Assembly: GCA_964626625.1 (NCBI GenBank)
Contig: CAZVFV010000001.1
Coordinates: forward strand, 1 to 43,220
Direction of reading: 5' to 3'
DNA: 43,220 nt
DNA from: an uncultured Candidatus Saccharibacteria bacterium
GTDB taxonomy: Bacteria > Patescibacteriota > Minisyncoccia > Phycocordibacterales > CAYZPE01
Below, piece by piece: positions 1 to 43,220 of the stretch. Below the pieces are notes generated by a model. The model was not told where the DNA came from, searched no databases, and saw only the letters and a list, made by a program, of their open reading frames with translations. A program made the translations under genes and the position numbers. The stretch's first letter is position 1. Every line of letters starts with the position of its first letter.

Positions 1-187
<187 letters not shown>

Positions 188-320
188 TTATTAAAATGTC
201 TATATTACATACCTTTTTACACACCGTCAGATTAGATTTAAATTCAAGCTAAATGAATTTCTAACGGAACAGGTGCTAAAAGACAGATACACATTCTAAC
301 AAAAAAATGGTTAATTTAGC

Positions 321-351
321 AAAACAGCGCGACCATTGGTCGCGCTGTTTT
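321..351 (-). terminator. GC-rich hairpin downstream of the 380..979 gene
   Basis: The arms aaaacagcgcgacc and ggtcgcgctgtttt form a near-perfect stem, immediately 3' of the minus-strand ORF that ends at 380. Confidence 0.6.
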
Positions 352-379
352 GAAAGCTACATGTTCTATGTTACATGTT

Positions 380-979
380 TCAAGTTTTAACTTCTGAAGT
401 TTGAGCTACGTCGCCTTCATCTTTCACAATCCTTACTTGCTGATGTTGCTCAGCAACCTTATGATGCTGATTAAAGATCACCTTCTTAGCAACTTCTGGA
501 TATGCTGCGTGTCGAATAAAAAATCCTTTACTGTCTTCAGAAGCAGTTTGAACATGAATATCACCAAAATCAAAAAAGGTTGCAACAATACCCTTGACCT
601 CAACAGAAACATCTTGAATTTTATCGAAACGAATATTTGAAATTTGACGATGAAAAATTCCTTTTTGATCAATGTCGATAATACGCTTATTTGTCACATA
701 CCATACATCGAGATAATAATTCGTCCATTGAACAAAAAACAAGACCCAAAGTAACAAGACCCAAAGAGTGTAGACAAAAAGAGCAAGAAAGAGAGCTGAG
801 TTTTCTAATACAAAATGTAACTGTTCTGGCAAAAGAGAGCTGTTCCAAATGCCGTACGCAAGAGGGGGAAATATAACACCTCCGATAAAAGCAAGGATTG
901 CTGACAAAAACACAAACCAGTGTTTACGTACTTCAAGTAGTATCTTTTCTCCTTGATCAAGGTTTAATACTTCTGCCAT
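380..979 (-). CDS. Membrane protein with a bacterial PH (YdbS/YdbT-like, bPH_2) domain
   Basis: 199 aa. Two N-terminal hydrophobic helices are followed by WYVTNKRIIDIDQKGIFHRQISNIRFDKIQDV, typical of membrane-anchored bacterial PH domains. Confidence 0.7.
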   Translation of the reverse strand: MAEVLNLDQGEKILLEVRKHWFVFLSAILAFIGGVIFPPLAYGIWNSSLLPEQLHFVLENSALFLALFVYTLWVLLLWVLFFVQWTNYYLDVWYVTNKRIIDIDQKGIFHRQISNIRFDKIQDVSVEVKGIVATFFDFGDIHVQTASEDSKGFFIRHAAYPEVAKKVIFNQHHKVAEQHQQVRIVKDEGDVAQTSEVKT

Positions 980-4331: not shown

Positions 4332-5132
4332 TTATAAAAATATCAGTATCAATACCGCGAGAATAACTCGGTACCAAATAAATAATTTTAAAGTTCTATT
4401 TTTTAAGAAAATCACAAGAAAATGTATAGCAAGCAATCCTACTGCAAAAGCAGTTATACCTCCCGCGAGCACTGGGAGAAAAGATACTCCACTTGCTGTT
4501 CCTAAACTAAACAGACCCTTAAGAGCAGCTCCAAAAATAATCGGTACCGAAAGAAGAAAACTAAAACGAACTGCTTTATCACGAGAAAGCCCTACTAACA
4601 TACCTCCAGAAATTGTTGCGCCAGATCGAGACATACCTGGAATTAAAGCAAGTGACTGAAATAAGCCAATATAAAGAGATTTTTTATAAGAAGGAAAGGT
4701 GTCACTTATTTCCTGCTTTTTATACATGTACTCGGCAATATACATTAAAACAGAACCGAGAATAAGAGCGAAAGCAATCATTGTTGAAGACCTAAAGGTA
4801 TTTTCAAAGAAACCAGAAAATAAAAAGCCTAGTATCACAGCAGGCATAGTTGCAAGAGTTATCATTGCAACAAACTCCTGCTCTGCCCTAACAGCCTTCC
4901 GTCTCACAACTCTATAAGTTGATGTGACGAGAGCTTTTACATCAGACCAAAAATATACAAGTACTGCACACAGTGTTCCCACATGAAGAAAAATATCAAA
5001 AAGAAGCGTACCTGTTATGTTTATTCCAAGAAAATCTCTGACGATGACCAAATGCCCCGAAGAAGAAACTGGAATAAATTCAGAAATACCCTGAACAAAT
5101 CCTAATACAATACTAGAAAATAATTCGTTCAT
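4332..5132 (-). CDS. uppP: Undecaprenyl-diphosphate phosphatase
   Basis: 266 aa polytopic membrane protein with the BacA/UppP signatures EFIPVSSSGHL and PGMSRSGATI. Confidence 0.92.
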   Translation of the reverse strand: MNELFSSIVLGFVQGISEFIPVSSSGHLVIVRDFLGINITGTLLFDIFLHVGTLCAVLVYFWSDVKALVTSTYRVVRRKAVRAEQEFVAMITLATMPAVILGFLFSGFFENTFRSSTMIAFALILGSVLMYIAEYMYKKQEISDTFPSYKKSLYIGLFQSLALIPGMSRSGATISGGMLVGLSRDKAVRFSFLLSVPIIFGAALKGLFSLGTASGVSFLPVLAGGITAFAVGLLAIHFLVIFLKNRTLKLFIWYRVILAVLILIFL

Positions 5133-21389: not shown

Positions 21390-22076
21390 TTATTTCCCTT
21401 CTTTTCGCCATTCTTCTATTTTTTTGTGATCTCCCGACAAAAGCACTTTTGGTACTTTATATTTCTTGCCTTTATATTCTAAAATTTCTGGACGAGTGTA
21501 TACACGAGGAGATGCAATTCGAAGTTCTTCTAGTGAATTAATATCTCCTAATACACCCGAAACCTGCCGTGACATAACATCCATAATAAGCATGGCGGGG
21601 AGCTCTCCTCCTGTAAGCACAAAGGGTCCAACGGAAATATCTTCAGTTTTAAAAACTTTTTTTACGCGATCATCAATACCTTCATATCGTCCACACACAA
21701 TAATAATATCTGTATATTTTTTTACAGCTTTTTTAGCATAGTTATTTGAAAATTCCTTACCTGATGGAGAAAGCCAGATAATCTTAATAGTAGTCTTTTT
21801 AGTTTTTTCTTTGATATTGGAAATTGGTAATTGGAAATTACGAGCAGTATCAACAGCTTTCTCAATAGCTCTAATCGTCGGCTCTGCCCGTATCACCATT
21901 CCTGGACCACCCCCATACGGTTTATCATCTAGACGTTTCTTAGAATCAGCCTCATACTCTTTTGGGTCATAGAAAAAAACTCGAATCTTTTCATCTTCAA
22001 TCGCTCTCTTTAATATTGACTCTCCAAGATACGAAGTGAATGCATCTGGGAAAAGTGTGATTATATGAAAATTCAT
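21390..22076 (-). CDS. trmD: tRNA (guanine37-N1)-methyltransferase
   Basis: The start is moved to M18 of the track ORF (MNFHIITLFPDAF, the canonical TrmD N-terminus). The 17 upstream codons read through the inverted-repeat element. Confidence 0.9.
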   Translation of the reverse strand: MNFHIITLFPDAFTSYLGESILKRAIEDEKIRVFFYDPKEYEADSKKRLDDKPYGGGPGMVIRAEPTIRAIEKAVDTARNFQLPISNIKEKTKKTTIKIIWLSPSGKEFSNNYAKKAVKKYTDIIIVCGRYEGIDDRVKKVFKTEDISVGPFVLTGGELPAMLIMDVMSRQVSGVLGDINSLEELRIASPRVYTRPEILEYKGKKYKVPKVLLSGDHKKIEEWRKEGK

Positions 22077-22200
22077 CCCGTTAGAGATAGGTCGAGGTCT
22101 TTTATTTTGGAGCTTTCTGTTTAACATGTTTCTAATTATAATTTTACACCATTAAAATCATTGCTTCTACTACAGGTGCGACTGCGATCTCTAACGGGAT
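22075..22200 (-). mobile_element. Miniature ORF-less copy of the inverted-repeat element (MITE-like)
   Basis: The perfect 14-bp arms atcccgttagagat (22075-22088) and atctctaacgggat (22187-22200) are 98 nt apart. They are identical to the arms around the GIY-YIG ORF, and ATGA flanks both ends. Confidence 0.5.
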
Positions 22201-22209
22201 TCATTGTAT

Positions 22210-22244
22210 AGCTTTGAGCTATTAGCTTATAGCTTATAGGAAAA
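22210..22244 (+). repeat. Phased heptamer array: agctttg agctatt agcttat agcttat aggaaaa
   Basis: Five in-phase 7-nt units lie between the KH-gene terminator and the inverted-repeat element. Confidence 0.55.
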
Positions 22245-22256
22245 AAAATCAAAAAA

Positions 22257-22282
22257 TAAAACCACCCTTTAAGGTGGTTTTA
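22257..22282 (-). terminator. Intrinsic terminator after the KH-domain gene
   Basis: aaaaccacc-ctttaa-ggtggtttt, followed on the minus strand by a long U-tract. Confidence 0.75.
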
Positions 22283-22295
22283 TTTTTTGGTTTTT

Positions 22296-31266: not shown

Positions 31267-31316
31267 AATCCCGTTAGAAGTCACAGTCTCTTACGAAACT
31301 TGCCTCTAACGGGATT
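31267..31316. repeat. Solo hairpin copy of the inverted-repeat family
   Basis: aatcccgttaga (31267-31278) pairs with tctaacgggatt (31305-31316) across a 26-nt loop. It has the same core sequence as the arms at 22075/22187 and 42886/43153. Confidence 0.55.
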
Positions 31317-31323
31317 ATTTTCT

Positions 31324-31557
31324 TCAAACCACTGAGATATCATCAGGAAGCTCGATCTGCACAAATTCTGTAAGTGACACTCTTTCAAACTTAAGACCCA
31401 AACATTCAAAACAGTTCTTTTCTCCAGCTCGGGTGGTGAGATCTTTTCTATACAAAATCCCCTTCCACCAAAACAGACTTCCATCAGGAAGATTCAGAAA
31501 ACAAACTTCAGCCACCTTAACCTTCTGAGGTTTATCGGGAACCATTAAGAAAGGCAT
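31324..31557 (-). CDS. Hypothetical 77-aa protein
   Basis: The ATG is preceded by AAAGGAGG at 4-nt spacing, and a candidate TTGAAT-18-TATAGA promoter lies upstream. It is GC-rich and no family was recognised. The overlapping 31281..31484 ORF is treated as a shadow. Confidence 0.55.
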   Translation of the reverse strand: MPFLMVPDKPQKVKVAEVCFLNLPDGSLFWWKGILYRKDLTTRAGEKNCFECLGLKFERVSLTEFVQIELPDDISVV

Positions 31558-40646: not shown

Positions 40647-42887
40647 CTACCTCACTGTCCACCCCTTCTTCTCAACCTCCCCTACTATTTGCTCCATTAC
40701 CTTGTTTATCTCTTCATCTGAAAGAGTTTTATCTTGAGACTGAAATACAAGTCTGAATGCATACGAAGTTTTTCCATCTTTTTCAAAGACATCAAATAAT
40801 GATATCTTCACAAGTAATTTCCCTGCATGTATTCGTATAAGCTTTTCTGTCTCCTTATCAGTTACCTCTTTTGGTACCCACAGAGCAATATCTCGTAGTA
40901 TAAACGGATAAACTGATATGTTTGTATATGTTTTCTTTTTTTGATTCAACTCCATACCATGCTCGCTAGCATCTCGAAGTTTTTCTATAATTTCTTCTAA
41001 ATTACATTCTATAGTCGAATCCTTTGTCATAAGATCAATACTCAATTCTTTTCTTAATATATTTAAAACATCCTGCAGAGTGTCTACCTCCCCCTCCTTC
41101 TTCCAACCCTTAGTATTTTTAACCGATATACATAAAGACACGTGTTCTTCACCATCTTTAGTAAACACTGTTCCAATTTCAAAAACTTTAATCTGGTTTA
41201 GACCCAAAAGTGGTGCATTGTATTCATTGAGTTTATGACTCTCTAAAACACCACGAGTTAAATTTTCCCGTACATATTTTTTATCTAAAGCGATAGGGTT
41301 TGCTATTTCCACCTTCCCTTCATTTCTAAATGAATATGTTTTTATTTCTGAGAATCCTTGTTTAGAAAGAAGATCTGTAATACGAAGTATGTAGTAGAAA
41401 AGTTTATTTACTTTTGGACTTACATTACTTTCTGGAAGTGCAACAGGAGCGACGTTATCGTATCCATGAATACGCCCAACTTCTTCGATAATGTTTTCTT
41501 TTAGATTTAGGTCGAGACGTCTGTATGGTGGAATTACCTTAAGCACATCTTTCTCGATACATACCTCACACTCAAGTGCTGTAAGAATCTTTTGTGCAGA
41601 AGTTAAAGAAATATGTATTCCAAGAACCCTTTTTATATCTTCTTGTCTAAGAGATATTTCCTTTTTTATGTGTGGCGATGGATATGTATCGCTCAAACCT
41701 TCATCTTTAGCTCCTGCAAGCTCCTCTAAAAGAGAAACTGCTCTCATAAGCCCTTCATGAACAAGCTCTGGAGATAATTCCTTTTCGAAACGAACACTTG
41801 ATTCAGTTCGAAGTTTTAAAGCCTGTGAAGTAAGTCTAGTTTGTACAGGATCGAAATTTGCAGACTCGAGCAGTATATCTGTTGTTTTCTCTGTAATAGA
41901 ACTTGCTTTACCACCTTTTATTCCGCCAATACCTAGAACCACATTAGTTTGCTTGTCTGTAATAAGAAGTGCAGAAGAAGGTAATTTATACTCAACATCA
42001 TCAAGGCCTATAAATTGCTCTCCTTCTGTGGCACCTCTTACATGCACATGACGCACACCTTCTTTTTCAAAAATATGAGAAAGGTCAAAAGCATGCAGTG
42101 GCTGTCCCATGTCCTGCATAACAAAATTTGTTATATCAACAACATTATTTATTGGTTTTTGACCAATTGATAGCAATCTCTCTTTAAGCCATTTTGGACT
42201 TTGACCAACCTTAACATTACGTAGAATTACAGCGCTGTATCGTGGAACAAGTTTTGGATTTTCAATTGATATTTGGAGTGTAGAACTCTTTTGCAGTTCT
42301 TTAGCTTGAACTTTTTTATTTAAAGGAATATCTAATATGGCACCGACTTCTCGAGCAATACCCTCATGAGAAAGACAGTCATGTGCTCTGTCTGGTAAAA
42401 CTTTAATATCAAAAATAGAATCTGTTTCTATATGTAAAAATTCCTTAAGTGGAGTTCCGACTTTAACTTCTTTTTCTATCACCCAAATCCCTTCGGCTTC
42501 TTTAGTAAAACCAAGCTCTTTTTCGGAACAAATCATTCCATTTGATTCAACACCTCGAATCTTTGAAACTTTAATCTCAAAATTACCTGGCAAAACTGCA
42601 CCCGGAAGCGCTACCGCAACAGTTTGTCCCTCTGCAACATTTACCGCTCCACAGACAATCTCTCGTCCCCCATCGCCAACATCCACTGTACAAATATGTA
42701 AACGATCAGCATTTGGATGTTTTTCTTTTTTGAGAACTTTACCAATAACAACATTATTAAAATGCCCACCCACTTCTTCGAGGCTCTCAATTTCAAATGC
42801 ATGAAAAGTAATCTTCTCTGCAATTAAAGCCGGAGAAGGCAATTTACTTTCGAAATAATCTTGAAGCCACTTATAGGAAATTTTCAT
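40647..42887 (-). CDS. pheT: Phenylalanine--tRNA ligase beta subunit
   Basis: 746 aa with MKISYKWLQDY, a tRNA-binding OB domain (HPNADRL), and B3/4, B5 and FDX-ACB-like C-terminal regions. Confidence 0.95.
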   Translation of the reverse strand: MKISYKWLQDYFESKLPSPALIAEKITFHAFEIESLEEVGGHFNNVVIGKVLKKEKHPNADRLHICTVDVGDGGREIVCGAVNVAEGQTVAVALPGAVLPGNFEIKVSKIRGVESNGMICSEKELGFTKEAEGIWVIEKEVKVGTPLKEFLHIETDSIFDIKVLPDRAHDCLSHEGIAREVGAILDIPLNKKVQAKELQKSSTLQISIENPKLVPRYSAVILRNVKVGQSPKWLKERLLSIGQKPINNVVDITNFVMQDMGQPLHAFDLSHIFEKEGVRHVHVRGATEGEQFIGLDDVEYKLPSSALLITDKQTNVVLGIGGIKGGKASSITEKTTDILLESANFDPVQTRLTSQALKLRTESSVRFEKELSPELVHEGLMRAVSLLEELAGAKDEGLSDTYPSPHIKKEISLRQEDIKRVLGIHISLTSAQKILTALECEVCIEKDVLKVIPPYRRLDLNLKENIIEEVGRIHGYDNVAPVALPESNVSPKVNKLFYYILRITDLLSKQGFSEIKTYSFRNEGKVEIANPIALDKKYVRENLTRGVLESHKLNEYNAPLLGLNQIKVFEIGTVFTKDGEEHVSLCISVKNTKGWKKEGEVDTLQDVLNILRKELSIDLMTKDSTIECNLEEIIEKLRDASEHGMELNQKKKTYTNISVYPFILRDIALWVPKEVTDKETEKLIRIHAGKLLVKISLFDVFEKDGKTSYAFRLVFQSQDKTLSDEEINKVMEQIVGEVEKKGWTVR

Positions 42888-43144
42888 CCCGTTAGAGATA
42901 GGAAACGCTTAATTCTGTTCTTAATAAAACGTTTTCCCATACCAGATTTTAAATATAATTCTCTCGACCGAGCATCGCCTTCATTAAGACATGCTTCATA
43001 GTAAATAAGTGTAAACGGTCCACGCTCTTTTGTATATGGAGACTTTCCATTATTATGTTGCCACAAGCGTTTCCGTAAGTTACTTGAGTATCCAGTATAG
43101 AATCCACTCGTCTTTTTACTTTTGATTATGTATGTGTAATGCAT
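42884..43144 (-). CDS. GIY-YIG nuclease superfamily protein (single-domain, 86 aa)
   Basis: YIIKSKKTSGFYTGYSSNLRKRLWQHN matches the GIY...YxG...R...H/N core. Its TGA stop overlaps the pheT ATG (ATGA). Confidence 0.85.
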   Translation of the reverse strand: MHYTYIIKSKKTSGFYTGYSSNLRKRLWQHNNGKSPYTKERGPFTLIYYEACLNEGDARSRELYLKSGMGKRFIKNRIKRFLSLTG

Positions 43145-43167
43145 AACTAAGGATCTCTAACGGGATC
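42884..43167 (-). mobile_element. GIY-YIG ORF cassette bounded by 14-bp perfect inverted repeats, inserted at the pheS-pheT junction
   Basis: The arms are atcccgttagagat (42886-42899) and atctctaacgggat (43153-43166). ATGA lies directly outside both ends on the coding (minus) strand. The ORF fills the space between the arms. Confidence 0.6.
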
Positions 43168-43170
43168 ATA

Positions 43171-43220
43171 TTAAAACTGATTTACAAGCCTCAGATCTCC
43201 GTTATACAGCATGCGCACAT
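43171..43220 (-). CDS. pheS: Phenylalanine--tRNA ligase alpha subunit, C-terminal fragment
   Basis: The reverse-strand frame reads VRMLYNGDLRLVNQF-stop, which matches the conserved PheS C-terminus (D[IV]R..Y.NDLRFL.QF). It runs off the window edge. Confidence 0.8.
   Translation of the reverse strand, partial: VRMLYNGDLRLVNQF

Follow-up and report, generated by a model that had tools for sequence, protein, structure and literature searches.

The window analysed here is a stretch of 43,220 nt from contig CAZVFV010000001.1 (assembly GCA_964626625.1), read on the forward strand. Near its right end, the minus strand carries the 3' end of pheS followed by pheT, and between these genes lies a 279-nt insert with an ORF for an 86-aa GIY-YIG nuclease (Table 1). 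As stated in the original prediction, the ORF is bracketed by a perfect 14-nt inverted repeat, ATCCCGTTAGAGAT, at 42886-42899 and 43153-43166, and it reads through the right arm to take its TGA stop from an ATGA that overlaps the start of pheT. The same prediction regarded the ATGA found on both flanks (43166-43169 and 42884-42887) as a target-site duplication. Both ATGA copies are present and the duplication is real, but its length had to be revised: judging from sequence, the boundaries are best set as TCCCG...CGGGA, because a family-wide comparison shows those limits, and the duplication at this site is then the 3-bp TGA. The alternative split into ATGA plus TCCCG...CGGG describes the same bases. 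The final A of the right terminal inverted repeat is also the A of the pheT ATG. When the window was searched with a profile of long elements (nhmmer), the insert was recovered at E = 1.4e-73. With up to three mismatches allowed, the window contains 10 matches to the arm (2.96 expected), a count reached in 0 of 100 shuffles.

Table 1. Positions of the element, its parts, its host genes and the further copies in the window.
Feature	Position	Strand	Remarks
Complete ORF-bearing element, 279 nt, TCCCGTTAGAGAT...ATCTCTAACGGGA	42887..43165	minus	on pheT start codon
Left terminal inverted repeat, TCCCGTTAGAGAT	43153..43165	minus	with A43166, the 14-mer originally predicted
Right terminal inverted repeat, ATCTCTAACGGGA	42887..42899	minus	codes for the nuclease C-terminus, ...SLTG
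Left copy of target duplication, TGA	43166..43168	minus	with A43169, the original ATGA of the pheS-pheT junction
Right copy of target duplication, TGA	42884..42886	minus	stop of nuclease ORF; bases 2-4 of the pheT ATGA
86-aa GIY-YIG nuclease ORF, Slx1-like/UPF0213 lineage (predicted)	42884..43144	minus	internal ATG start (architecture b)
Inner stem, 5' strand (GGAAACGCTT)	43065..43074	minus	inside codons for L-R-K-R-L
Inner stem, 3' strand (AAGCGTTTCC)	42901..42910	minus	immediately internal to right arm
pheT, host gene with targeted start codon	40647..42887	minus	Pfam tRNA_bind, B3_4, B5, FDX-ACB
pheS, 3' end	43171..43220	minus	stop TAA 43171-43173; truncated by window edge
ORF-less copy, 124 nt, perfect arms	22076..22199	minus	on start codon of trmD (21390-22076)
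Degenerate relic, 46 nt, arms with 1-2 mismatches, 20-nt loop	31269..31314	minus	intergenic
Degenerate relic, 101 nt, 3 mismatches per arm	169..269	minus	

Empty sites and mobility

The empty junction that had been predicted (…TTTTAATATGAAAATT…; CAGTTTTAATATGAAAATTTCC) exists in contig L140. There the element is absent and the sequence reads TAATATGAAAATT, as compared to TAATATGA[element]TGAAAATT at the filled site, a difference of exactly the element plus TGA. Over 2,076 nt, the pheT genes of L140 and of the filled strain show 99.1% identity, and L140 and a filled contig were both recovered from one metagenome, JGI sample Ga0163150. A second empty site, in contig L220, is the counterpart of the ORF-less copy at trmD, and the TrmD encoded there is identical. 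Homologues of the nuclease with 74-78% identity and the same arms are located at unrelated junctions (ScpA|ScpB, DUF268|methyltransferase and YqeY|holin-like). An exact-protein look-up found the identical nuclease only at pheS|pheT, with no identical paralogues. In a PheT-based metagenome scan, relatives outside the same species were at most 50% identical; in general, their pheS and pheT overlap by ATGA or are a few nt apart, and the junctions have no arms.

Terminal inverted repeats, target duplications that vary with the site, insertion at non-homologous sites and empty sites, all of them features of transposable elements of the IS/MITE type, were found. The element is mobile, and the original proposal to this effect is supported by the L140 allele, by a match of the protein to PF01541 and by the recurrence of the arm, which occurs in both orientations in the window and at more than 100 loci in other genomes, with co-varying direct repeats. 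In the general description of Slx1-like proteins of prokaryotes, these are inherited vertically and have a presumed function in repair (PMC1564403). The ORF might accordingly be a non-mobile housekeeping gene of the YhbQ type, accompanied by a conserved hairpin with a regulatory role. We find this scarcely conceivable, as it is refuted by the empty alleles and varied insertion sites, and as target duplications and ORF-less copies are present. Nor is the gene one that always occupies this position without repeats, given the 74-78% homologues with the same arms elsewhere; vertical inheritance at a stable locus, as generally described for the Slx1-like lineage, is not what the nuclease of the element displays.

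That one population is polymorphic for presence of the insert at a single locus would also be expected of a free-standing homing endonuclease gene, which cuts the empty allele only and is copied by homologous repair, with the repeats and the ATGA being incidental. The insertion is intergenic and embedded in an operon, as are those of the phage Seg and Mob genes, and GIY-YIG enzymes are the classical homing endonucleases (PMC1564403). However, homing makes no target duplication and needs no terminal repeats, whereas the duplications here co-vary with the site. Insertions are found at many non-homologous sites, the ORF-less derivatives are polymorphic too, and the protein is a bare 86-aa catalytic domain that lacks the DNA-binding modules of homing enzymes and is placed in the Slx1-like rather than the homing-endonuclease/UvrC lineage. 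Homing is therefore a very improbable explanation.

A family of elements on start codons

The 17-mer of the right arm, used as a query against species-representative genomes, matched at least 119 stretches, nearly all of them from Patescibacteria. At least 136 copies were delimited, at loci from at least 67 Patescibacteria species genomes, and their 13-nt ends (TCCCGTTAGAGAT) show no variation in the consensus drawn from 93 short, 14 mid-size and 24 long copies. Among the copies listed, the target duplication is an exact 4 bp in 82 of 136, mostly TGAA; its length is 3 bp in 14 copies and 5 bp in 3. The duplications co-vary between both flanks across loci, with flanks that match over 4 bp or more in 85 of 135 copies as opposed to a mean of 18.8 (maximum 28) after random re-pairing of left and right flanks. 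Lengths of 3, 4 and 5 bp side by side are unusual for a single defined staggered cut.

About one fifth of the copies listed have the nuclease ORF, with ORF-less copies exceeding ORF copies by ∼4:1, proportions that are approximate as the genome scan was seeded on one arm sequence. The order of the element is left arm, ∼75 nt, 5' strand of an inner stem, loop B, 3' strand of the inner stem, one T and right arm. ORF-less derivatives are 100-200 bp long, in classes of ∼120 and ∼190 bp, and keep the ends and the co-varying inner stem; they differ from the ORF form solely in missing most of loop B (the ORF), as would result from deletions within that form. An exact inner-stem complement of at least 6 nt occurs in 58 of 78 short, 10 of 13 mid-size and 24 of 24 long copies, compared to 2-8% in shuffled interiors, and the stem is formed by many different compensating sequences across the family. 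The many ORF-less derivatives, this second co-varying stem and the start codon as the target itself go beyond what had been noticed in the original prediction.

At two loci, no more than 20 kb separate ORF-less from ORF-bearing copies, and 240 kb of distant relatives contain essentially no ORF-less copies. At another locus, two lone arm remnants flank a proA-like gene. The arm has no match in viral contigs, and phage and plasmid records contain only distant GIY-YIG genes (<45% identity) and no element. No description of such a family was found in open-access papers and preprints, in agreement with the earlier suspicion of an undescribed class of small mobile element. This GIY-YIG element family is widespread in Patescibacteria and apparently undescribed.

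In 115 of the 136 copies listed (85%), an ORF of at least 60 aa begins at the terminal A plus TG, compared with 26% at control ATGAA sites, and the target logo of 70 reconstructed empty sites is A(69/70)-T-G-A/G-A/G. The target of the family is 5'-A|TGAA-3', that is, the start codon and the next two bases, with duplication of 4 bp (3-5 bp in some copies). Since the terminal A of the element restores the ATG, the host gene retains its start codon; at two loci, newer copies have inserted on an ATGAA regenerated by older ones. The enrichment at start codons could largely reflect selection against insertions within genes, rather than specificity of the enzyme.

The nuclease ORF is co-directional with the host gene in all 19 long copies with callable orientation and host gene, and at two further loci; none is reversed. 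ORF copies come in three start/stop architectures. Translation begins either at the original ATG of the host, in which case the left arm is read as MNPVRD, or, as in the window, at an ATG within the element. The stop is either a TGA that overlaps the restored ATG or a TAA within the right arm. Identical arm DNA is translated in either of two frames, as ...KRFLSLTG* or ...GASYL*. With this arrangement, the nuclease ORF would borrow the translation signals of the host gene and pass ribosomes on to it by termination-reinitiation. Such a hand-over leaves host expression behind ORF-less copies unexplained, because the frame from the original ATG ends early in 66 of 81 of these, and Shine-Dalgarno-like motifs lie upstream in just 17 of 78. 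General translational coupling was rejected for ORF-less copies on the first count, and bridging of a Shine-Dalgarno motif by the hairpin on the second. Stops at the arm TAA are ∼5-fold enriched over shuffles in ORF-less copies, yet account for a minority.

Could the stems have been selected in RNA? The arms and the inner stem would then fold in the mRNA and loop the insert out, keeping the host gene translatable, and the fold would not be a DNA substrate of the nuclease. The predicted folds are more stable than those of shuffled sequences (z = -3.8 as RNA, z = -3.0 as DNA), the inner stem co-varies freely, like the helices of structural RNAs, and the right arm contains stop codons in two frames and none in that of the host gene. 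In addition, 92% of the ORF-less copies (78 vs 7) have one orientation relative to the host gene and its transcription; as the termini are symmetric, this bias requires either strand-specific insertion or selection. However, the outer arms never co-vary and have the same sequence in over 100 genomes, which suggests that a protein recognises them rather than that they merely pair. Mismatches of the G.U type are not clearly favoured over A.C (G.T vs A.C, 16 vs 10, compatible with folding of either RNA or DNA), no Rfam family matched at gathering score anywhere in the window, and the scarcity of Shine-Dalgarno-like motifs leaves the hairpin little to bring nearer to the start codon. We consider selection in RNA possible but doubtful. 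Because it is compatible with mobility, it competes only with the role proposed for the stems: pairing of the arms in the mRNA may accompany mobility and spare the host gene, but is no substitute for it.

The nuclease and a proposed mechanism

As anticipated, the 86-aa protein matches the PF01541 profile; its score is 58.5 bits (E = 8.5e-16), and the curated cut-off is 22.6. Among 36 homologues Y3, Y5, R24, R26, H30 and E50 do not vary and Y16 hardly does, and the AlphaFold2 model (pLDDT 89) has the elements E2-9, E15-20, H23-31, E44-52 and H55-66; the protein thus combines the catalytic-type residues of GIY-YIG enzymes, namely the Tyr of GIY, the Tyr of YIG, Arg, His and Glu, with their beta-beta-alpha-beta-alpha fold. 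No NCBIfam model matches it, and Pfam shows neither a transposase nor an HUH domain in the window ORF. In phmmer searches against structures it matches only 1ZG2 (E = 1.3e-7) and 1YWL, and Foldseek ranks the UPF0213 protein 1ZG2 first and then Slx1 (TM 0.62-0.65), above I-TevI (1LN0, TM 0.49) and UvrC. On sequence and predicted structure the nuclease is assigned to the Slx1-like (UPF0213) lineage of structure-specific nucleases, as defined in PMC1564403, by virtue of its stand-alone minimal domain and its closeness to 1ZG2, 1YWL and Slx1; a C-terminal Asn region is characteristic of the other, UvrC+ lineage. Across the family it has 84-95 aa and is the sole ORF of the element. Its median dN/dS of about 0.16 indicates purifying selection, and third-position identity is 47% in the ORF core vs 100% identity in the arms.

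DDE transposases normally give rise to MITEs with end repeats and target duplications, and no strand transfer is possible for a lone hydrolytic nuclease. The elements could accordingly be an ordinary MITE family mobilised in trans by a conventional transposase whose gene lies elsewhere, the GIY-YIG ORF being a passenger, such as a homing or addiction gene in one MITE lineage. The excess of ORF-less copies would fit this, as would the IS605-type OrfB near pheS in some strains, which indicates that other mobile-element enzymes are present in the genome; IS605-type (IS200/IS605) elements and REPINs, for their part, have no terminal inverted repeats and no target duplications. On the other hand, no larger arm-bounded element with another transposase occurs among the 119 loci listed. 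The ORF is integrated with both arms, shares the direction of the host gene and is under purifying selection, it retains identical arms across lineages that are saturated at synonymous sites, and the short copies share the architecture of the long ones minus loop B. We therefore think it unlikely that the ORF is a passenger.

With a probability of roughly two in three, we read the feature as a very small mobile element, present here in an autonomous copy that the nuclease of its own ORF would move. According to this model, the nuclease would recognise the invariant arms and cut the base of their hairpin or cruciform, and/or make a staggered cut at TGAA, after which host ligation and gap filling would finish the move and produce the target duplication. 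The joining step is assigned to host functions because a hydrolytic GIY-YIG nuclease alone cannot join DNA. The inner stem and outer hairpin may also fold in the mRNA, lessening the harm to translation of the host gene. One may speculate further, though here we are evenly divided, that these elements form a new class of transposable element in prokaryotes and are smaller, at ∼280 bp, than any other autonomous one known. An 84-95-aa Slx1-like nuclease would then act on the folded ends of the element and on A|TGAA while host enzymes join; the element would land on start codons, rebuild the ATG, take over the translation start of the host and return ribosomes via the overlapping stop/start. At 279 bp, the copy at pheT could be the smallest self-contained transposable element known.

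If the nuclease does move the element, it would add a new enzyme class to the few routes of DNA transposition in prokaryotes and set a new lower size limit for autonomous mobile elements. The Slx1-like branch of GIY-YIG proteins, considered vertically inherited repair enzymes, would then include selfish members. Self-repair of the ATG, together with overlapping stops and starts, makes for a compact, nearly harmless parasite in genomes almost without intergenic space. So small a nuclease, recognising a defined sequence in DNA, may appeal to tool builders as well.

Known systems and further copies in the window

The nuclease resembles the Slx1-like/UPF0213 proteins (YhbQ, YazA, BH0048, EF2693) in being a minimal GIY-YIG domain, of 86-107 aa, without an auxiliary domain. 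Unlike them, its gene is bracketed by inverted repeats, flanked by duplications, polymorphic and present at many sites; the selfish GIY-YIG enzymes known come from the UvrC+ and not the Slx1-like lineage (PMC1564403). Free-standing GIY-YIG homing genes (T4 Seg, I-TevI family) share the fold, the selfish insertion between host genes and the presence/absence polymorphism. Their products, however, have DNA-binding modules, are ∼200 aa or longer and belong to a different GIY-YIG lineage, and the genes have no terminal repeats, duplication or non-coding derivatives. Homing enzymes also move into the cognate allele only (PMC1564403).

With insertion sequences and their MITE derivatives (IS630/Tc1-type MITEs, the Correia/NEMIS elements of Neisseria) the family shares terminal inverted repeats, a short target duplication, many short non-coding derivatives beside fewer coding copies, and empty and filled alleles. 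Correia elements adjoin gene starts and are co-transcribed, a further likeness. The family differs from all of these in that its sole ORF is a hydrolytic nuclease and not a DDE, DEDD, HUH, serine, tyrosine or Cas1 transposase, in that it targets and rebuilds a start codon, and in its strong orientation bias relative to the host gene. The smallest insertion sequences known to us are roughly 600-700 bp, against ∼280 bp for the coding element.

REP/REPIN-RAYT (HUH) systems and IS200/IS605 likewise have hairpin repeats around a small gene, commoner gene-less hairpins that are dispersed, a short specific target and folded single-stranded DNA as a plausible substrate. The present family has GIY-YIG instead of HUH/Y1, true terminal inverted repeats and target duplications, and it sits at start codons rather than in intergenic clusters as REPs do. 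Penelope-like retroelements integrate by means of a GIY-YIG nuclease (PMC8557442) and are, to our knowledge, the only class of transposable element to do so. They are eukaryotic, dependent on reverse transcriptase and kilobases long, with an RNA intermediate. Integron attC sites were also considered and rejected. They have the consensus RYYYAAC ... GTTRRRY and lie in cassette arrays beside an integrase, whereas our arms have GTTAGAG ... CTCTAAC, the opposite order, and the copies are dispersed on start codons without cassette arrays.

Insertion of these elements has placed hairpins at hundreds of Patescibacteria 5' ends, and the elements could be used as strain-level markers. They also affect the annotation of Patescibacteria, by displacing called gene starts and adding short upstream ORFs. 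The window contains one ORF copy, one ORF-less copy and two relics. In the ORF-less copy, which is duplicated at TGAA (TTCA on the plus strand; 22072-22075 and 22200-22203) and has a predicted RNA fold of -32.6 kcal/mol (z = -3.8), an ATG within the element turns the 228-aa TrmD into a 245-aa ORF. The 46-nt relic follows a 77-aa ORF at 31324-31557. The terminal base of the 101-nt relic is the A of an ATG (169-167, minus strand), and the gene behind it, from its translation after this ATG as read by eye, we take to be enolase-like.

The pheT copy and its empty allele

The minus strand of the window's final stretch reads ...CAGTTTTAA T ATGA TCCCGTTAGAGATCC ... CCTATCTCTAACGGG ATGA AAATTTCC, with the left ATGA 2 nt downstream of the pheS stop. 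As the original prediction had claimed, perfect inverted repeats surround a GIY-YIG ORF here, and the ORF crosses the right arm to end at a TGA overlapping the pheT ATG. When up to three mismatches are allowed, the window contains 10 matches to the arm; 2.96 would be expected, and no shuffle out of 100 had as many as 10. The recurrence of the arm is therefore not due to chance. The matches pair up as four inverted pairs. In three of the four copies in the window the element's final base supplies the A of a downstream ATG, belonging to pheT, trmD and a gene next to the 101-nt relic that we take to be enolase-like.

Coordinates of the elements and of neighbouring features in the window and in contigs of related genomes and metagenomes
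Feature	Sequence	Coordinates	Strand	Remarks
14-nt inverted repeat ATCCCGTTAGAGAT	window	42886-42899, 43153-43166		perfect
GIY-YIG ORF	window	42884-43144	minus	86 aa; PF01541, E = 8.5e-16
Inner stem of pheS-pheT copy	window	43065-43074, 42901-42910		
Right arm CCTATCTCTAACGGGATGA	window	42884-42903	minus	
pheT	window	40647-42887	minus	746 aa
ORF-less copy	window	22076-22199		124 nt; perfect arms; on trmD start
Relic	window	31269-31314		46 nt
Relic	window	169-269		101 nt
Longest trmD ORF	window	21390-22127	minus	245 aa
Short repeats and hairpin	window	22204-22285		
IS605-OrfB/Cas1-like gene pair	L001	152-2173		
IS605-OrfB/Cas1-like gene pair	L003	190-2211		
Different 86-aa ORF	L011	3751-4011		
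Different 86-aa ORF	L013	7389-7649		
Different 86-aa ORF	L014	5150-5410		
Nested or tandem copies	L021	about 4715-5014		
Nested or tandem copies	L104	about 150-445		
Nested or tandem copies	L094	278-484		two 101-nt copies, 3 nt between
Lone arm remnants	L092	5923 and 7561		

The insertion between pheS and pheT amounts to 282 bp, that is, the 279-bp element plus TGA. The empty site that had been predicted, TTTTAATATGAAAATTTCC, is matched exactly in contig L140, which reads ...CAGTTTTAATATGAAAATTTCC... and comes from the same JGI sample (Ga0163150) as the filled contig L004. The identity of L140 to the window is 100% over the 55 nt of pheS that they share and 99.1% over 2,076 nt of pheT. Filled and empty alleles are both present in mat metagenomes such as JGI 3300020195 and 3300020219. 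An empty trmD site is found in contig L220 (...AAATATGAATTTTCAC...), where the window and contig L219 read CAATGAA[124 nt]TGAATTTTCAT, and all 228 residues of the L220 TrmD are identical. Since point substitutions separate both empty contigs from the filled strain, they represent real alleles rather than collapsed assemblies. There is hardly any doubt that the element is mobile, and the interpretation proposed from the sequence was correct in this respect.

The trmD copy also illustrates how members of this family can mislead the annotation of start codons: the longest trmD ORF begins at an ATG within the ORF-less element, while the true start, the ATG rebuilt at 22076, gives the 228-aa protein predicted in L219 and L220. 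Short repeats of the AGCTTAT/AGCTAT type and, after them, a terminator-like hairpin (aaaaccacccttaaggtggtttt) separate this copy from the KH-domain gene. The stretch immediately preceding pheS, which lies outside the window, holds in some strains (L001 and L003) an IS605-OrfB (TnpB)-like gene of 419 aa and then a Cas1-like gene of 232 aa; others (L002 and L004) have different genes there, so that the region adjoining the element is strain-variable.

A lineage-wide family on start codons

The finding reaches well beyond a single locus: miniature elements that target start codons, with a Slx1-like GIY-YIG nuclease as their lone protein, form a family that extends across the lineage. The identical 86-aa protein occurs solely between pheS and pheT, on about 13 metagenome contigs of one species. 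Homologues of 86 aa at 70-84% identity gave 1,688 matches, whose named sources are Paceibacteria-type Patescibacteria such as Lloyd-, Zambryski-, Taylor-, Giovannoni- and Terrybacteria. On long contigs, three homologues reside in unrelated junctions (ScpA-ScpB, DUF268-methyltransferase and YqeY-holin-like), with identical geometry and arm DNA despite a protein difference of about 25%. The right-arm 17-mer, with the following bases left free, matched at least 119 stretches in a species-representative genome collection; 80 of these matches represent at least 67 distinct assemblies, nearly all of them Patescibacteria. Essentially no copies were present in 240 kb of distant relatives. From the 17-mer loci and the window, 136 elements were delimited.

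Two minor observations belong here. In L092, a contig of a MAG labelled Elusimicrobia, a proA-like gene has a lone arm remnant on either side, reflecting either cross-phylum spread or a mis-binned contig. A different 86-aa ORF lies between a TrpRS-like gene and an AspRS gene in three contigs (L011, L013 and L014); it has no Pfam match and no arms, and is not GIY-YIG.

All size classes have a common layout, in which an invariant left arm of 13 nt and a stretch of about 75 nt precede an inner stem, whose 5' strand lies at position 86-92; then come a loop (loop B), the 3' strand of the stem, one T and an invariant right arm of 13 nt. Loop B spans 3-6 nt in the short ORF-less copies, which form the majority (about 84-133 nt, peaking at 117-123), about 70 nt in the mid-size ORF-less copies (about 169-205 nt), and about 150 nt, with most of the ORF inside, in the 24 long copies (276-283 nt). 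Four remnants measure 45-51 nt. Because the layout is the same and only loop B is reduced, the short copies are loop-B deletion derivatives of the coding form. ORF-less copies also occur near ORF-bearing ones in the same genome, as in L015, where one long and three short copies lie within 20 kb. The sequences of the inner stem differ between copies (GATTTCC, GGCGACC, CGCACTTCC, AAGCGTTTCC, AGGCGCTTCC and more), each being matched by a perfectly complementary strand; in 58 of 78 short, 10 of 13 mid-size and all 24 long copies the complement is exact over 6 nt or more, against 2-8% with the interior shuffled. A minority of short copies (L039, L060, L074, L098, L125 and L137) have the complement of the sub-terminal segment directly after the left arm, at position ~16, and form one simple long hairpin rather than the usual asymmetric two-stem layout.

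With the element defined symmetrically as TCCCG...CGGGA, exact direct repeats flank most of the 136 elements, being 4 bp long in 82, 3 bp in 14 and 5 bp in 3. Their sequences are TGAA (30) or its complement TTCA (26), TGGA/TCCA (8 and 4), TGAG/CTCA (3 and 3), and others. In 85 of 135 copies the two flanks match over at least 4 bp; when left flanks were re-paired at random with right ones, 18.8 copies did so on average and 28 at most. That the terminal A is the element's own and not part of the duplication is shown by cases such as GTGGA[element]ATGGA. An ORF of at least 60 aa begins exactly at this A plus TG in 115 of 136 elements, several of the exceptions being at locus ends, as compared with 26% of the ATGAA sites taken from these loci as controls. 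The 70 reconstructed empty sites read A (69/70), T, G, A55/G12, A62/G7, with no further strong signal. This enrichment at start codons may in part reflect selection, as insertions within genes get lost. The preference for TGAA and the repeated insertions on regenerated sites argue for a real sequence specificity as well: in L021 and L104, newer copies were inserted on the ATGAA regenerated by older ones. Nested or tandem copies are seen in these two loci and in L094.

Orientation relative to the host gene is strongly biased in ORF-less copies (78:7), and in every callable long copy (19, plus L033 and L044) the ORF is co-directional with the host gene, none being reversed.

The nuclease and its relatives

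The ORF takes three forms. In one (94-95 aa), it starts at the host's original ATG, in the left copy of the duplication, runs through the left arm as MNPVRD and ends at the TGA that overlaps the rebuilt ATG; the window form (86 aa) has the same stop and an internal ATG as its start; and the third (84 or 92 aa) starts at an internal ATG or the host ATG and stops at a TAA within the right arm (...GASYL-stop). Five of seven sampled copies of the third form are at hosts whose second codon starts with a base other than A, so that no ATGA stop is available to them. As the invariant arm DNA is read in two frames, the constraint on it acts on nucleotides. The right arm, for example that in the window, holds stops in two frames (TAA in the arm, TGA with the host ATGA) and is open in the third, that of the host gene; a ribosome arriving from upstream thus terminates beside the host ATG or continues into the host protein. 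The nuclease itself is under purifying selection (median dN/dS of 0.16 over 135 non-saturated pairs), and the arms are 100% identical at third positions, as against 73% for the inner-stem codons and 47% for the core.

In the PDB, a sequence search retrieved two proteins only, both of UPF0213: 1ZG2 (E = 1.3e-7) and 1YWL. The structure predicted for the nuclease is confident (pLDDT 89), and the model best fits 1ZG2, then eukaryotic Slx1 (TM 0.62-0.65), both ahead of I-TevI and UvrC; its RMSD to 7CQ3 is 1.6 Å over 72 columns. In a 2006 survey of the superfamily, 1ZG2 and 1YWL were assigned to a prokaryotic Slx1-like lineage whose members are described as minimal, as passed on mostly by vertical descent and as presumed repair enzymes, while the known selfish GIY-YIG enzymes derive from the other (UvrC+) lineage (PMC1564403). 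The protein studied here belongs to the Slx1-like lineage, but its genomic behaviour is unlike the descriptions of that lineage. Slx1 is a structure-specific endonuclease that cuts branched DNA (PMC1564403), and by analogy such an activity would suit an enzyme acting on the arm hairpin or a cruciform.

Comparison with known systems and a possible mode of movement

Terminal repeats, target duplication, many sites and empty alleles liken the family to an insertion sequence with MITE derivatives; the difference is that it encodes no known transposase class, and no larger arm-bounded element was found among the loci listed. A homing endonuclease gene is ruled out by the duplications, the non-homologous sites and the absence of a DNA-binding module. 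REP/RAYT or IS200/IS605 elements are ruled out as well, for there is no HUH enzyme, and terminal repeats and duplications are present. Curated RNA families had no match in the whole window. In open-access papers and preprints we found no description of such an element; one paper on Patescibacteria mentions a GIY-YIG protein merely in a list of horizontally transferred genes. We could find no counterpart for the start-codon design, for a size of 280 bp, or for the chemistry implied, in which a hydrolytic nuclease acts alone and the host does the joining.

What is established comprises inverted repeats at the termini, duplications of 3-5 bp that depend on the site, alleles lacking the element, a start-codon target whose ATG is regenerated by the last base of the element, co-orientation of the ORF and its stop/start overlap, ORF-less deletion derivatives and a conserved, co-varying inner stem. 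The explanation that accounts best for these features, to which we assign a probability of about two in three, is an autonomous tiny mobile element that targets start codons and is moved by its nuclease with joining by the host. On balance the nuclease is probably the mobilising enzyme. The arms, unlike the inner stem, never co-vary, which points to their recognition by a protein rather than to mere pairing, and this protein may be the nuclease. The enzyme would then cut at the base of the stem, make a staggered cut at TGAA, or both. Host ligase and polymerase would complete the move, the joining being assigned to the host because a hydrolytic nuclease is unable to join DNA.

In ORF-bearing copies, the nuclease may be translated from the initiation region of the host gene or from an internal ATG, and ribosomes would be handed to the host gene at the ATGA overlap. 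In copies that lack the ORF, reading from the original ATG mostly runs into a stop after ~14 codons (66 of 81), and Shine-Dalgarno-like motifs upstream are rare (17 of 78); folding of the insert in the mRNA of these copies, as modelled (z = -3.8), is plausible.
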